Source of the DNA: Acidobacteriota bacterium
GTDB taxonomy: Bacteria > Acidobacteriota > Vicinamibacteria > Vicinamibacterales > UBA2999
Assembly: GCA_009694735.1 (NCBI GenBank)
Contig: SHUG01000002.1
Coordinates: forward strand, 6,533-70,532
Reading direction: 5' to 3'
DNA length: 64,000 nt
The first letter of the stretch is position 1; each line of letters begins with the position of its first letter. Below are positions 27,421 to 34,128 of the stretch, piece after piece. The position numbers and the translations under genes were made by a program. The notes under the pieces are model-generated. The model was not told the origin of the DNA and did not search any database. It saw only the letters and a program-made list of their open reading frames with translations.

Positions 27421-27474
27421 GCCCAAAAACTCTGTTTTGAGGGGTCCGAGAACCTGTTAAACTAGGAGGCGATC

Positions 27475-27852
27475 ATGAACACAGAAACGCACACCATCAC
27501 CCCGGACATGCCCGCGATGATCGATCCGATGATTACGGTCACCGAATCGGCGGCCGGCAAGATTCGCGAACTGCTGTCTGAGGAAGGCAAGCTCGAGAGC
27601 GGCTTGCGTGTCTTCGTGCAGGGCGGTGGCTGCTCGGGCTTCCAGTACGGCCTGATGATCGAAGAGGGCGGCGGCGTCGGCGACCAGCTGTTTGAATCGA
27701 ACGGCGTGCGGCTGTTCGTCGATCCGGTGAGTGTCAGCTACCTGAAGGGCGCCGAAGTGGACTTCGTCGACACCATCACGGGCGGCGGCTTCACCATCAA
27801 GAACCCCAACGCCACGTCGACCTGCGGCTGCGGTTCATCCTTCACCGCCTAG
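27475..27852 (+). CDS. erpA: iron-sulfur cluster insertion protein (HesB/IscA/ErpA family)
   Basis: GGGCSGFQY and C-terminal CGCGSSF motifs. A strong AGGAGG ribosome-binding site lies upstream. Confidence 0.9.
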   Translation: MNTETHTITPDMPAMIDPMITVTESAAGKIRELLSEEGKLESGLRVFVQGGGCSGFQYGLMIEEGGGVGDQLFESNGVRLFVDPVSVSYLKGAEVDFVDTITGGGFTIKNPNATSTCGCGSSFTA

Positions 27853-27859
27853 AGGCGCC

Positions 27860-28879
27860 ATGGCCTCGACGGCTGCCATTCCGGACCTCGATCGGCTGCG
27901 GCCGGCCGGTACCAAGCGTTCGAGCAAGCGCGACCTGATCGTCAACGTGTTCCTCAAGCAAGAGGGGCACCTGAGCGCCGACGATCTGGTGGTGCTGATC
28001 AAGCGCGCGGACCAGCGCATCAGCCGCGCCACGGTCTATCGCACCCTGCAGTGGATGGAAGAGGCGGGCATTGCCCGCAAGGTGGACTTCGGCGAAGGCC
28101 GCTTCCGCTTCGAGCATTCGTACCGGCATCCGCGGCATTTCCATCTCATTTGCAAGACCTGCAACCGCTCGTACGAGTTCTTGAGCTCGGACATCGAGTC
28201 GCTGGTTGAGGAAGTGGCGGCGGCGCGCGCGTTCACGGCGCGCCAAAGCGTGGTGCAGATTTACGGCACCTGCGACGCGTGCAGCACCGGGCATGCGCCC
28301 GAAGAGTCCTCCAATTCCGAACTGCTGTTCGCACGCGATGCGCTGCGCATCGCCATTGCCACGGAGCGCAGCGGCATGGAGTTCTATGGGCGCGGTGTCA
28401 AGTTGGTCAAGGATCCGCGGGCGCGCGAGATTTTCCGCAAGCTGGCCACGGAAGAAGTGCACCACCTGACAACCCTCGAGGCTCGCTACGAGGAACTGCT
28501 GAGGCAAGACCCGCTGCTCGAGTCGCGGCCGACGTTCCTGTTCTTCAAGGGCGCGGCCAACGGACTGTTTGCCGCGGGCACCGATCAACTGCGCCGTGAC
28601 GGCGTCGACGATCTCGAGGCCTATCGAATCGGCATTCGCTGCGAGCGGGGTTCGCACCGATTCTTCAAACGCTACGGCGAACGCTTCGAGGACTCGGAAG
28701 GGAAGCAAGTCTTCCTGGAGTTCGCCGAAGAAGAGCGTGAGCACCTCGAGTTGCTGATCCGCGAGTATCGGGCTTTGGTCAAACGGCAGCGCGACACCGG
28801 CCACAAACCACTCGGCGCGCCGAAGCGTCAGGGCGCAGGCGGGCGGGCCAAAGCGCGTGCCCGCGCAGCCAGCCGTTGA
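27860..28879 (+). CDS. Fur-family DNA-binding domain fused to a rubrerythrin/ferritin-like diiron four-helix-bundle domain
   Basis: The N-terminal ~145 aa look like Fur (winged helix RATVYRTLQWMEEAG, CxxC…CxxC = CKTC…CDAC). The C-terminal ~190 aa carry E…EEVHH…E…EEREH, the E/ExxH x2 diiron ligand pattern. Confidence 0.8.
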   Translation: MASTAAIPDLDRLRPAGTKRSSKRDLIVNVFLKQEGHLSADDLVVLIKRADQRISRATVYRTLQWMEEAGIARKVDFGEGRFRFEHSYRHPRHFHLICKTCNRSYEFLSSDIESLVEEVAAARAFTARQSVVQIYGTCDACSTGHAPEESSNSELLFARDALRIAIATERSGMEFYGRGVKLVKDPRAREIFRKLATEEVHHLTTLEARYEELLRQDPLLESRPTFLFFKGAANGLFAAGTDQLRRDGVDDLEAYRIGIRCERGSHRFFKRYGERFEDSEGKQVFLEFAEEEREHLELLIREYRALVKRQRDTGHKPLGAPKRQGAGGRAKARARAASR

Positions 28880-29781
28880 TCGATCTTCACTTACACACGA
28901 CCGCGTCGGACGGCCACCTGTCGCCCGCGCAACTGGTCGACCGCGTGGCCGCGGCCGGCATCACCACCATGAGCGTGACCGATCACGACACGGTGGCCGG
29001 CCTCGCGGAAGTGGCGGTGGAGGCTGCGTCGCGCGGCATTCGCCTGGTGTCCGGCATCGAGATCACGGCAGTGGCCGAGGGTCGTGATGTCCACATGCTG
29101 GGGTATTTTTTCGATCCCGACAGCGCGGTGTTCCTGACGTTCCTGGAAGGGCAGCGCGCGCTACGCGTGGCGCGCGTCCGCGAGATTGGCGCGCGGCTCT
29201 TCTCGCTGGGCCTGCCTGTCGATGTCGAGGCCCTGGTCACTACCGCGGCGACGCGTCCCGGATCCTCGATCGGCCGTCCACAGCTCGCGCGTGCGCTCGT
29301 CCGCGCGGGACACGTGAGTTCGGTGCAGGAGGCGTTCGAGCGCTGGTTGGCGACGGGCCTGCCGGCCTTTGTGCCGCGCACCGGCCCCAGTCCGTCGACC
29401 GTGGTCGACGTGATTCACGCGGCCGGGGGCGTGGTGTCGTTCGCGCATCCAGCGGTGACCAGGCGCGACGACCTGATTGGGCCGCTGGCCGGCCACGGCC
29501 TGGACGCCATCGAGGTGTATCACTCGGATCACCGGCCGGAAGATGTGCAGCAGTATCGCGGCCTGGCGCAGAGGCTGGGCGTGCTCGTGACCGGCGGTTC
29601 CGACTTTCACGGCGACTCTTTGACTCAGCCGATGGCCGGTGCTTCGACCGGTCCCTCGGCTTCGCTCAGGGCGGGCCCTTCGTCGCGCACACGCCGCAAT
29701 TCGTTGGGTGTCGTGCTGTTGCCGCCGGATGACTTTGCCGCGCTCGAGAGCCGCGCTGCCGAGATCCGGCGCCCGTCGTGA
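28876..29781 (+). CDS. PHP-domain metal-dependent phosphoesterase (TrpH/YciV-like)
   Basis: N-terminal IDLHLHTTASDG and C-terminal GGSDFHG. The TTG start overlaps the upstream TGA. Confidence 0.85.
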   Translation: MIDLHLHTTASDGHLSPAQLVDRVAAAGITTMSVTDHDTVAGLAEVAVEAASRGIRLVSGIEITAVAEGRDVHMLGYFFDPDSAVFLTFLEGQRALRVARVREIGARLFSLGLPVDVEALVTTAATRPGSSIGRPQLARALVRAGHVSSVQEAFERWLATGLPAFVPRTGPSPSTVVDVIHAAGGVVSFAHPAVTRRDDLIGPLAGHGLDAIEVYHSDHRPEDVQQYRGLAQRLGVLVTGGSDFHGDSLTQPMAGASTGPSASLRAGPSSRTRRNSLGVVLLPPDDFAALESRAAEIRRPS

Positions 29782-31208: not shown

Positions 31209-31304
31209 GGAAGTGAACGGGGCCCGGTGGCCCTCCCGGTCTTCAAAATCGGTCGCTGCCTCCTTGCGGGGCAGGCTGGGTTCGACTCCCAGGCGCTTCC
31301 GCCA
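31209..31304 (+). tRNA. selC: tRNA-Sec (anticodon UCA), CCA encoded
   Basis: GGAAG…CTTCCGCCA acceptor ends and a 6-bp D stem (GGGGCC/GGCCCT) with a 4-nt loop. Anticodon loop CTTCAAA, a long variable arm (CTGCC…GGCAG) and T arm CTGGG-TTCGACT-CCCAG. It closely parallels E. coli selC as I remember it. Confidence 0.9.
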
Positions 31305-31461: not shown

Positions 31462-32658
31462 ATGACCACGGCGCGAAAATACCCACCACAACGCACTACA
31501 CTGCTCGCGGCATTATTTGAGGGAGGTCTGCGTATCGAGCAGCGGAATGCGAATGCCATTCTGTATGCGCGGACGTTTCTTTCCGGGAAACCCCTTGGGA
31601 ACAGTACGGGTGAGATCACGATCGGCGCAGCGAAAACGGCAGCGACGAAGTGGCGTCTCGATCTCTTGGCACAACAACGACTCGGCATTGCGATCCACGG
31701 CGAGACGTTCGAGGTTGCGGCACGGGCATTTCTGACCGATCAAGATCACATCAAAGCAGTGTCTGATGGGCAACGCAACAACCATCATTCAAAGTGGCGC
31801 TTGTTACAGCCGCATCTCACGGGTATTCGACTCACAGCGATCGATCTCAGTTGGCTCGAACAGCTGCGCAATCGACGGTCGCGTGATCTGAACAGGTCTG
31901 GGGCAGCGATCTCGTCGTCCACACTCAAGAAAGACTTCATTGTCATTCGTCTGGTCTTACGGCATGCGCTGGAACGGACAAAAACGCTGGCATCGGTACC
32001 GACCTTTCCTTCGTTTGCTGAACGCAAATGGAAGATCCACGCGCGACCACGTCGGTTCTTGACCGCAGCTGAATACGCGGTACTGCAGCAGACGGCTCTG
32101 ACGCGCATCAATAATCCCGCGATTACGGATCGGCAACGCTCGACGCGGCAGGTGTTGTTCTGGTTTATGGAACTGTGTGTTGGTGGCTGTCTGCGCGTGG
32201 ATGAAGCACGCTCGTTACGGTTTCGTGACTGTGTACTCTCGACGGTCATGGTTGGGACAACGGCTCGGGCGGTCTTGTTGATGAAAGTCCTGGGCAAACA
32301 TTCCCTGAATGGAGATGATCGGGAAGAGGCGTTCGGTCTTGCAGGTGCAGTTTCGGCATTCACGGCACTCCCGAAACGTCGACCGCAGGCTCAGGCAGAT
32401 GACCTGTTGTTTCCATCGCTGCATCGGCGCCAGTTTCGCGAACTGCTCGAGGCGGCGCAGTTGCGAGTCACGGCAACGGGTGACACGCGCAATATGAAGT
32501 CGCTGCGGTCGACAGGCATTTGTCTGTGACTGAACGATGGGCCAAAACAGCTCGACTATCGGGCGATCGCGAAATATGCACGGACATCTCCGACCATGAT
32601 CGCAGCGTTCTATGAGCAAACGCACGCAACGGCATTATTGGGGACATTGCTGCGGTAA
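31462..32658 (+). pseudogene. tyrosine recombinase/phage-type integrase with an in-frame TGA at 32527-32529
   Basis: Box I Arg is in GGCLRVDEARSL. The ORF stops at …KSLRSTGICL*. The same frame then continues LNDGPKQLDYRAIAKYARTSPTMIAAFYEQ…, which holds the expected C-terminal catalytic Tyr region, up to the TAA at 32656-32658. Confidence 0.8.
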
Positions 32659-32845
32659 CGATCGTCTGGGGTCGTGGTCACGTCGTCCGTCATGCCTCTA
32701 GCGAATGACCAGTACCACGCACTGTTCATTGTCACCAGGAGCGCGGAGGACGGATCCGTCCCGAGTCCTGCGTTACTCAAGAGGATCGCGCAGGCACGTC
32801 AGGATCGTGCCGGCAACGCCATTCTGACAGTCACGTGCACCCGGA

Positions 32846-33331
32846 TTACGGTGCGGAGCGACACCCGCTGAAATCCAGGATCCGCGCATACTGCGTCGGC
32901 GGCACGCCCTGCGTGCAGCCGTCACTGGTGACGTTCTTCCGCGTCCCGGTCGGCACTTGTCCGCCGCTACAGGTCAGCGTCGTCCACTGGGTATAGCTGA
33001 AACTGTCCTGTCCGCACGAGAACTGGCTCACGGAGTTCTCGCCAGAACGCCCCGGCGACGAGAAACATTGCGCAGAATCGTAATGGAGTGGAAACTCGGT
33101 CGTGGCGTTCGGCGTGCCACTACACGTCGCGTCCTGCCAGAAGCCGACGGTGATGTAGCGAGCCGGTCCCGTGGGTAGCGCCGGACCGACTGGCGTCGGC
33201 GAGGATGACAGCGTCGATACGGGTGCACTCGGCGCCGTTGGTGCGGAGGAAGTGCTGGTCCCGGCGCCGCACCCCGCTGTCACCACGCACGCCACCATCA
33301 CGACGAGGGTTCCGCCAAGCAGCATTGACAT
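32846..33331 (-). CDS. hypothetical lipoprotein, Cys-rich (island cargo)
   Basis: Signal peptide with lipobox (VVTAGC), a Pro/Ser/Thr linker, and then a domain with six further Cys. Confidence 0.5.
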   Translation of the reverse strand: MSMLLGGTLVVMVACVVTAGCGAGTSTSSAPTAPSAPVSTLSSSPTPVGPALPTGPARYITVGFWQDATCSGTPNATTEFPLHYDSAQCFSSPGRSGENSVSQFSCGQDSFSYTQWTTLTCSGGQVPTGTRKNVTSDGCTQGVPPTQYARILDFSGCRSAP

Positions 33332-33495
33332 CGCCAGAATCCGTCCCGAGTCCTGTAGAAATTAAAAAATGGCGTAACTTCCTGCTGAATCTCAAACAGC
33401 AGCTCGCCGGTTCAGACCATTATGGTTACCGAGGCGTGCGATGTCGATGACTTTCCTGACACTGCCCACGATCCTACCGAACACTCCAGACGATC

Positions 33496-33822
33496 ATGTC
33501 GGCAGTCGCACAGTTTGAACGGGAGAAGATCGGTGAGCGGACGAGGGACGTGAAGCGACAGCGCTTAGCAGAGGGCTATTTCGTCGGTGGTGCTGTGAAG
33601 TGGGGTCTCACGGTCGTGGATGGCAAGTTCGTGGCAGATGTGAAGAAAACGGCATTGATCGCGCAGATGAAGGCGTGGCGCAGTCAAGGGAAGTCGCTGC
33701 GTGACATCGTGGCGCGGGTGGTGGAGCGCGGCGAACCGATCTCGGTCGATACGGTTCGAACGCTCACGAATGACGTGGCGACAGCGGAGATGCATCGGCG
33801 AGGGCGACGGAAAAAGTCGTGA
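33496..33822 (+). pseudogene. serine recombinase (resolvase/invertase) C-terminal fragment
   Basis: It starts at the conserved …AVAQFEREKIGERTR block. The catalytic N-terminal domain is missing, and stops lie upstream in the same frame. Confidence 0.65.
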
Positions 33823-34128
33823 CGGCGTGCGCGGTTCACGTTGCGAGGACAGCGTTTCTTGACACCGAAGTTGACACCACGTTTTCGGCAACACACTTGC
33901 GACATGTCGCAACTGGTTGCTGAGTACTTAGGTGACTGACGTTTGCCTGAATGCACCCATCGCGGGCGATCCTACCTGCCGCAGCTCGAATGGCTTCAGC
34001 GCCTGGTCGTCAGTCAGACCGGCTTCGGCCTTCGGCCTCGCCTAAATCGGCTCGACTCCCAGGCATGGGCTCGGCTCGCCTTCGCTCGGGTCACACTCCC
34101 ACGCCCCAAGCGCCACACCCCACGCCCA

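Follow-up and report, generated by a model that had tools for sequence, protein, structure and literature searches.

A Fur-family regulator fused to a predicted ferritin-like diiron domain is abundant in Acidobacteriota and may sense iron and oxidants together

The window analysed here (the whole stretch of 64,000 nucleotides from an Acidobacteriota bacterium of the Vicinamibacterales; contig SHUG01000002.1 of assembly GCA_009694735.1, positions 6,533 to 70,532 of the forward strand) holds in its list of open reading frames (ORFs) an uninterrupted, ATG-started frame at 27860..28879 (+ strand), whose 339-amino-acid (aa) product joins a Fur-type transcriptional regulator to a C-terminal ferritin-like domain. 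Pfam recovered both halves: FUR over aa 16-135 (E = 9.4e-26, 90.8 bits against a cut-off of 23.1, profile positions 2-121 of 121) and Rubrerythrin (PF02915) in the C-terminal half (36.3 bits, cut-off 22.8), where DUF2383 and Ferritin_2 also match, less strongly. AlphaFold2 (AF2) gave a monomer model of the full-length protein (mean predicted local distance difference test score, pLDDT, 86.4; predicted template modelling score, pTM, 0.77) and, for the C-terminal domain modelled by itself, a bundle of four long helices with a long B-C crossover that holds a short helix. An earlier note, drawn up from the letters alone, had described precisely such a single ORF with a Fur module and a C-terminal four-helix bundle, and the Pfam matches and the models bear it out. 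The gene and its parts are as follows:

27860..28879, + strand: Fur-ferritin-like fusion gene (ORF; Pfam FUR and Rubrerythrin above cut-off; 410 full-length relatives)
27860..28123, + strand: N-terminal winged-helix DNA-binding domain, aa 1-88 (H37, E85; recognition helix A57-T-V-Y-R-T-L63)
28124..28288, + strand: Fur dimerisation domain, aa 89-143 (Zn site C98/C101/C138/C141; site-2 residues H93, H95, E106; site-3 positions R92, F94, E113, S130)
28289..28315, + strand: interdomain linker, aa 144-152 (variable sequence, fixed length; pLDDT 82-88)
28316..28795, + strand: ferritin-like four-helix-bundle, predicted diiron domain, aa 153-312 (E169, E199, H202, E262, E292, H295; Y176; R159/D160)
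28796..28876, + strand: basic C-terminal tail, aa 313-339, R/K/A/G-rich, modelled with low confidence (pLDDT 51-76)

The fusion is abundant in Acidobacteriota, and every family member with a named source belongs to this phylum. A scan of one genome per species yielded 486 stretches that encode a relative, the best 80 of which are essentially all metagenome-assembled genomes of Vicinamibacterales/Acidobacteriota, while about 12 fusion loci were found in a metagenome scan with a single fusion protein. An exhaustive search among 50%-identity representatives reached full-length fusions down to ~31% identity, and with a profile built from these remote sequences 847 proteins came up (E <= 1e-10), of which the top 120 have the FUR plus Rubrerythrin architecture and, where named, come from Acidobacteriota (Terriglobia included).

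As a way in which its description might fail, the earlier note had named a sequencing error at about 28290-28330, by which separate fur and ferritin-like genes would have been joined during sequencing or assembly. The only support for such a join comes from the frameshifted fragments of the family that are common in metagenome assemblies, where the intact form is nonetheless the rule: in hundreds of independent assemblies the ORF runs without a break through both domains (313-341 aa), the linker length is conserved and the frame in the window is continuous. Since the best 120 database matches (313-341 aa, 78-94% identical) carry both Pfam domains without exception, as do all 73 members of a redundancy-filtered set when matched individually (the domain search that the earlier note had proposed), we rejected the two-gene artefact, to which we attach a practically negligible probability. 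Two of the representatives, P0194 (331 aa) and P0262 (336 aa), were excluded from the family as Fur-Fur tandems; with two Fur modules on a single chain, they represent a different and likewise unusual Fur architecture.

Conservation was assessed in 410 full-length fusion relatives (down to ~31% identity), each scored at 15 metal-ligand positions (residue numbers follow the window protein). All 15 positions are identical in 397 of them, and both metal sites are by this measure under extreme purifying selection.

To place the residues of the N-terminal half, aa 12-139 of the fusion were aligned with HMMER to E. coli Fur (8j6w), and the metal sites of the two proteins correspond as listed (window protein given before E. 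coli Fur):

Site 2 (regulatory): H37=H33, E85=E81, H93=H88, H95=H90, E106=E101
Site 3 (accessory): R92/H87, F94/D89, E113/E108, S130/H125
Structural zinc site: C98=C93, C101=C96, C138=C133

In published Fur structures, H33/E81/H88/H90/E101 of E. coli Fur make up the hinge regulatory Fe2+ site, and H87/D89/E108/H125 the accessory site of the dimerisation domain. The Fur regulatory site has been described as a His/Glu site (PMC7762939), which agrees with this assignment of site 2. In the window protein the regulatory site is intact, contrary to the earlier note, which had it replaced by YRHPRHFH: all five ligands (H37, E85, H93, H95 and E106) align to those of E. coli Fur, each is kept in at least 409 of the 410 relatives, and what the YRHPRHFH stretch has lost is the accessory site, with R92, F94 and S130 in place of H87, D89 and H125, and E113 alone retained. 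Accessory site 3 is not universal in the Fur family, and its loss here is specific to the window's clade, since distant fusion clades mostly carry H/H/E/H at these positions. The CxxC...CxxC zinc site, on the other hand, was correctly read as kept, for C98/C101 and C138/C141 are invariant (410/410).

The recognition helix, ATV(Y/F)RTL, is conserved family-wide and matches the canonical ATVYRVL; the AF2 model of the DNA-binding domain comprises helices 22-33, 40-50 and 56-68 and strands 72-76 and 82-86. As modelled, the Fur half adopts the closed, DNA-binding conformation: in Foldseek comparisons it superposes on holo Mn-Fur-operator complexes with a root-mean-square deviation (rmsd) of 1.7-2.0 Å (1.7-1.9 Å for MgFur-DNA, 4rb2/4rb3) and a template modelling (TM) score of 0.84-0.87, and its matches 4rb2/4rb3/5nbc/1mzb span TM 0.84-0.88 and rmsd 1.7-2.3 Å, against an rmsd of 5.9-15 Å for apo/open Fur forms. 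The scores against NCBIfam equivalogs lie far below all cut-offs (Fur 74.7/220 and 66.4/146, Zur 57.4/167, PerR 55.2/180, Irr 32.9/150; bits/cut-off), hence the fusion is a Fur-family member and an ortholog of no named subfamily. The acidic ligands of site 2 are Glu (E85 in 410/410, E106 in 409/410), which by sequence is Fur-like rather than PerR-like; Bacillus subtilis PerR has Asp at both acidic regulatory positions (D85, D104), the second of which is tied to peroxide sensitivity.

The C-terminal half is a divergent, generic, predicted ferritin-like diiron-carboxylate domain, for which ‘Rubrerythrin’ is the name of the nearest Pfam model. Its ligands, E169, E199xxH202, E262 and E292xxH295, are each kept in 401-409 of the 410 relatives; the complete E, ExxH, E, ExxH set of the earlier note therefore stands, in the family-wide register E199xxH202 rather than E198xxH201. 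Y176, seven residues past E169, is kept in 406/410, and R159/D160, which are no metal ligands, are nonetheless the same in all 410 where the first bundle helix starts. When the domain was modelled alone (pLDDT 92, pTM 0.87), AF2 placed helices at 2-36, 40-70, 87-100, 105-129 and 134-167 (domain numbering). Within the bundle, one half is related to the other (by BLASTP, aa 253-317, i.e. helices C-D, share 38% identity with helices A-B of a relative), and each of them supplies one E...ExxH.

The Foldseek matches of the bundle are ferritin-like proteins, all of them weak (E at least 6e-3, TM ~0.6), the best being 2fzf, 1vjx, 2oh3, MJ0754, Rv2844, the Mn-catalase KatB, Dps-like proteins and bacterioferritins; no true rubrerythrin stands among the 50 best. 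Position 265, the equivalent of the seventh ligand of rubrerythrin, is Ser in 291, Ala in 116, Thr in 2 and Asn in 1 of the 410 relatives, and is never Glu. In rubrerythrin this seventh ligand is the second Glu on helix C, the redox switch (E97 of D. vulgaris Rbr). Past the bundle no CxxC pairs of a rubredoxin-like Fe(Cys)4 domain were found, and the protein ends in its basic tail, of which both length and sequence differ between relatives. We thus rejected a true rubrerythrin (no seventh ligand, no rubredoxin domain, none among the 50 best fold matches); the label given by the earlier note is justified insofar as PF02915 scores above its cut-off, yet proved too specific. The best NCBIfam match of this half is the ferritin domain of PRK12775 (E 4.8e-18), situated at the end of a multidomain oxidoreductase model. 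A closed cage of the ferritin/Dps type is unlikely, given the bulky N-terminal Fur dimer.

Between the two halves, the distance from C141 to R159 amounts to 17-18 residues in 261 of 292 members. The sequence of the linker is variable: in distant members (<45% identical to the window protein) it retains 19% identity, in comparison with 39-40% for the ferritin helices, 43% for the DNA-binding domain and 35% for the dimerisation domain. AF2 does not predict it as disordered (pLDDT 82-88), and together with the pTM of 0.77 this predicts a defined interdomain arrangement in the monomer model.

The surroundings of the fusion gene in the window include the following features:

27455..27463, + strand: extended -10-like box TGTTAAACT upstream of erpA (kept in most of the 40 loci displayed)
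27475..27852, + strand: erpA, A-type Fe-S carrier (NCBIfam NF010147 ErpA, 134.3 bits, cut-off 117)
28876..29781, + strand: PHP-family phosphoesterase gene (Pfam PHP, 41.5 bits; TTG start)

The earlier note had placed the fusion directly downstream of erpA and coupled it through a TTGA junction to the PHP gene, and on both counts its description is accurate: erpA ends 7 nucleotides (nt) 5' of the fusion gene, and the PHP start (TTG, 28876) overlaps the TGA stop of the fusion by 4 nt, as it does in 30 of 68 related loci (the junction is <=17 nt in 47/68). The PHP protein resembles the NCBIfam models of 3',5'-nucleoside bisphosphate phosphatase and RNase RNM, scoring below their cut-offs. Across Vicinamibacterales, erpA lies upstream of the fusion in 79/80 loci (with gaps of 11-207 nt), and the order fumA (a class I Fe-S fumarase) - erpA - fusion - PHP - ABC-like ATPase - HAD hydrolase recurs in 64-79 of the 80, the count varying by gene. 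We regard this arrangement as a clade-specific predicted operon (erpA co-transcription, PHP translational coupling) that lies outside the core mechanism. The earlier note had made it part of its reasoning, which does not carry over to the family, as the synteny is confined to Vicinamibacterales and is absent in other Acidobacteriota with the fusion; a conserved functional partnership with erpA and PHP was rejected, the six other acidobacterial contexts being unrelated. Because the erpA linkage vanishes outside Vicinamibacterales, the fusion behaves like a free-standing global regulator.

Outside Vicinamibacterales, the neighbours of the fusion are RF-2 and RecJ in one context, FabZ/LpxA in another and a divergent Fer2 ferredoxin in yet another; elsewhere it is divergent from an AhpC/TSA peroxiredoxin (loci L087 and L088), lies a few genes away from a HesB/IscA-type gene (in a context that also holds a Fer4 protein), or is divergent from an FbpABC-like ferric ABC transporter near which VIT1 and ExbB-ExbD-TonB are encoded (L092). 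Iron-uptake or peroxide-defence genes are its occasional neighbours, and the settings in the divergent subfamilies of L087/L088 and L092 are in keeping with a regulon that answers to both iron and oxidants.

In most of the 40 sequences displayed from a 66-locus alignment, a TG-n-TA(A/G)AAT box precedes the erpA ATG by 6-15 nt, and TGTTAAACT is the probable promoter of the erpA-fusion-PHP gene string; a consensus scanner run on the window found no full -35/-10 promoter at this box. Its position implies a very short leader, or none, in many relatives, and in the window the box is followed, ahead of the erpA ATG, by an AGGAGG (27464-27469). Some relatives carry at the erpA promoter a GACTA-N3-TAGTC palindrome (e.g., ACGACTAAAGTAGTCCT) that is absent from the window, located after the -10 box in L002, L005, L013, L030, L031 and L040 and before it in L037 and L042-L044. 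This palindrome is similar to the E. coli IscR type-1 site, and in these relatives erpA may be under Rrf2/IscR-type rather than Fur control. Directly 3' of the fumA stop, the window has an imperfect hairpin (CCCAAAAAC-TCT-GTTTTGAGGGG, 27422-27444) with no T-tract, which is also found in L001 and L003; close relatives keep its AAAAC/GTTTT arms and vary the loop.

Further side observations concern the downstream part of the gene string. In P0528 (495 aa, on a 749-kb contig) the fusion ORF continues seamlessly into the PHP phosphoesterase (‘...GQGAA-LIDLHTHT...’), and seven other proteins (P0125, P0137, P0138, P0197, P0201, P0214 and P0245) are long ORFs that run into PHP with only fragmentary Fur-ferritin matches. 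Such Fur-ferritin-PHP triple fusions are probably assembly indels at the 4-nt overlap, because most of them match Fur-ferritin in fragments only, as frameshifted assemblies would; a real triple fusion in some lineage is possible. Right after the HAD gene, the window encodes a selenocysteine tRNA (tRNA-Sec, anticodon TCA, 31209-31304), past which the GC content falls from ~0.67 to 0.55-0.60 (31462-34000) and the first ORF (31462-32529, 355 aa) has no Pfam match; a small island appears to have been inserted here at the tRNA.

We lean, tentatively, towards viewing the fusion as a Fur-family metal-dependent repressor with a second, built-in, redox-active iron sensor, such that a single protein may read iron supply and oxidative state together. 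Sequence and models show the fold, a linker of fixed length and metal sites that are both intact and conserved; iron binding, redox reactivity and allosteric coupling are inferred, and would operate in the following manner. As it does in Fur proteins generally, Fe2+ at the hinge site would close the dimer on an AT-rich operator resembling the Fur box, and the C-terminal site would take two more iron ions. The occupancy of this diiron site (apo versus di-Fe2+) and its oxidation state (di-Fe2+ versus oxo-bridged di-Fe3+, the latter arising by reaction with O2 or H2O2) would alter the bundle, and the change would pass via the rigidly packed linker to the Fur dimer and shift its geometry or its oligomeric state; the repression of iron-uptake and oxidative-stress genes would then be set jointly by iron supply and oxidant load. 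More doubtful is the wider proposition that the principal iron regulator throughout Acidobacteriota is a one-component iron/oxidant integrator, in which a rigidly attached diiron bundle allosterically gates DNA binding.

The one-component sensor that the earlier note had suggested is compatible with the conserved sites, the fixed linker and the pTM of 0.77, but several points weigh against it. Communication between the Fur and diiron modules was seen in no result, and the Fur half could sense metal autonomously, because its regulatory site is intact. A complete six-ligand site is not absolutely required, given that a small clade of 7 members carries E262N. One protein, P0149, has lost three regulatory-site and five diiron ligands together and is the sole member without Fur site 2; we rejected this co-loss as evidence of coupling and consider it merely anecdotal, because P0149 is a singleton lineage whose nearest relative is 47% identical. 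The search for operators was largely unrewarding as well: the window holds no match to the classical 7-1-7 Fur box at <=3 mismatches, only coding-region noise to the 19-mer Fur consensus at <=7 mismatches, and a single 3-mismatch match (chance level) to the variant box TGAAAATnATTTTCA. No shared motif was found by a palindrome scan upstream of the fusion in 17 diverse loci, and the inverted repeats upstream of fumA and erpA are GC-rich only, with no AT-rich palindrome among them.

A candidate operator was found outside the window, in the form of a perfect 23-bp (11-1-11) palindrome, ATCTTGAAAATcATTTTCAAGAT, which is situated at L092 4741-4763 and L093 1077-1099, between the FbpABC-like ferric transporter operon and the fusion gene. 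Its core, TGAAAAT-N-ATTTTCA, is one base per half-site off the 7-1-7 Fur box and is the sole perfect match in all the DNA examined (by our estimate, ~0.003 would be expected by chance in ~750 kb). We consider ATCTTGAAAATcATTTTCAAGAT a candidate acidobacterial Fur box, and its presence supports Fur-like DNA recognition in a fusion-bearing organism; against the view that the fusion acts there, it is a single case, lies nearer to the transporter operon and is possibly the site of another Fur paralogue. Separately, L090 (a locus that also holds the fusion gene) has at 1154-1168 a 2-mismatch variant box, TTGGACATGATTTTCA, which precedes a HesB/IscA-type Fe-S carrier gene by ~60 nt; the box stands at about chance level and echoes the erpA linkage of the window.

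The main rival explanation holds that the bundle is a tethered ferroxidase/peroxidase or iron buffer, which would detoxify Fe2+ or H2O2 near the repressor or swap iron with the Fur site, while DNA binding would remain uncontrolled by the bundle and regulation would be that of an ordinary Fur. The intact Fur regulatory site agrees with it, as does the complete dinuclear site with Y176, which is the pattern of ferroxidase centres, and the PRK12775 ferritin-domain match (E 4.8e-18) hints at relatives to which electrons are delivered. As a rule, however, the copies of a transcription factor are too few to detoxify in bulk, and the fusion comprises no electron-donor domain (rubredoxin, flavin), has Ser or Ala in place of the redox-switch Glu of rubrerythrin in 407/410 relatives, and keeps a linker length and a confidently predicted interdomain packing that a mere tether would not need. 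Even with the precedent of MbfA, in which a ferritin-like domain with ferroxidase activity is fused to a non-ferritin module (PMC7762939), we judge this explanation unlikely, though it is one to be reckoned with.

Next comes a metal-stabilised oligomerisation module, whereby the bundle would join Fur dimers into tetramers or higher forms that bind operator arrays cooperatively and its metal would be structural only. Four-helix bundles of this superfamily often self-associate (dodecameric Dps-like proteins and bacterioferritins are among the fold matches), Fur occurs as a tetramer in the solved Francisella structures 5nbc/5nhk, and the invariant, non-ligand R159/D160 are possible interface residues. 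The near-perfect retention of six ligands and the Tyr over ~31% identity exceeds a structural need, even if a structural metal would be conserved too, and we regard the scaffold as rather improbable. We give still less credence to a PerR-type protein, in which the Fur module itself would respond to H2O2 through metal-catalysed oxidation of histidine, with the fused domain as an accessory. One subfamily is divergent from the AhpC/TSA peroxiredoxin and PerR structures appear among both the sequence and the fold matches, but the acidic ligands are Glu (410/410 and 409/410) where PerR uses Asp, and the NCBIfam Fur models outscore that of PerR (74.7 and 66.4 against 55.2 bits), all below cut-off.

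Several known systems share parts of this architecture. With canonical Fur (E. coli 8j6w; Magnetospirillum 4raz/4rb2; Campylobacter 4ets; 29-34% identity) the fusion has in common the fold, the Cys4 zinc site, the five regulatory ligands and the ATVYR recognition helix; it differs by ~190 additional C-terminal residues that form the predicted diiron four-helix bundle and, in the window's clade, by the absence of accessory site 3 (R92/F94/S130; H/H/E/H in other fusion clades). PerR (B. subtilis 2fe3/3f8n), a frequent gene neighbour of rubrerythrin, has the same fold and represents the same theme of a Fur-type regulator with a diiron oxidative-stress protein, whereas the fusion ties the two covalently, has Glu for its acidic ligands and carries a domain without the defining extras of rubrerythrin. 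From the rubrerythrin/erythrin family (PF02915), whose cut-off it passes and whose two related bundle halves (each with E...ExxH) it shares, the fusion is set apart by the missing rubredoxin Cys4 domain and by the Ser/Ala that replaces the redox-switch Glu in 407/410 relatives. The closest solved relatives of the bundle are COG1633-type diiron proteins (P. furiosus 2fzf, T. maritima TM1526 1vjx, Magnetospirillum 2oh3 and MJ0754 3q4n; sequence E 2e-6 to 0.08, fold TM ~0.6), which have the same ligand pattern but are uncharacterised, stand-alone single-domain proteins with weak similarity to it (16-21% identity).

Two precedents come from further afield. In MbfA, a non-cage ferritin-like domain is fused to a VIT1 iron exporter, is ferroxidase-active and is needed for the function of its partner (PMC7762939). 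The likeness thus lies in a non-cage ferritin-like diiron domain fused to an iron-homeostasis module, whereas the partner in MbfA is a membrane transporter and the domain order is reversed; the fusion scores 22 bits on the NCBIfam MbfA equivalog (cut-off 450) and has no VIT1 domain. The hemerythrin diiron centres of BRUTUS hold iron that is labile when reduced and locked once oxidised by O2 or H2O2, and their state sets the output of an iron-homeostasis regulator, a precedent for reversibly oxidised iron sensing (PMC12022348). The sensing logic of BRUTUS/BTSL (plant) and FBXL5 (mammalian) is the one proposed here for the fusion, by analogy only, since those proteins are eukaryotic, have the hemerythrin fold with His-rich ligands, and act through ubiquitin ligase activity or stability.

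Full-text literature searches, in a collection that leaves out most subscription journals, brought up no account of a Fur that carries a ferritin-like or diiron domain, and the sources annotate the fusion proteins generically, as ‘transcriptional repressor’ or ‘Fur family ferric uptake transcriptional regulator’. The view of the earlier note that such a protein is functionally uncharacterised is in keeping with this; the architecture can be read off precomputed Pfam annotations and is in that sense not hidden, yet it appears uncharacterised.

Fur is the textbook bacterial iron regulator, and the variants Fur, Zur, Mur, Nur, PerR and Irr all remain within one scaffold of ~150 residues; the fusion is an intact Fur scaffold that bears a whole additional dinuclear-iron domain. 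Acidobacteriota, across which this form and its ligands are conserved, are a large and ecologically dominant soil phylum, hard to culture and with almost no characterised regulators. If the bundle were a tethered ferroxidase instead of a sensor, the fusion would still be an unusual repressor with an iron-detoxifying activity of its own. Should the diiron site modulate DNA binding, as in the reading to which we lean, the fusion would represent a new bacterial way to integrate oxidative state with iron availability in a single protein, a soluble and tractable model of sensing by a diiron site and a bacterial DNA-binding counterpart of the FBXL5/BRUTUS diiron logic; it would bring an undescribed sensory input to the Fur superfamily, and the annotation that now reads plain ‘Fur family’ or ‘transcriptional repressor’ would need revision.

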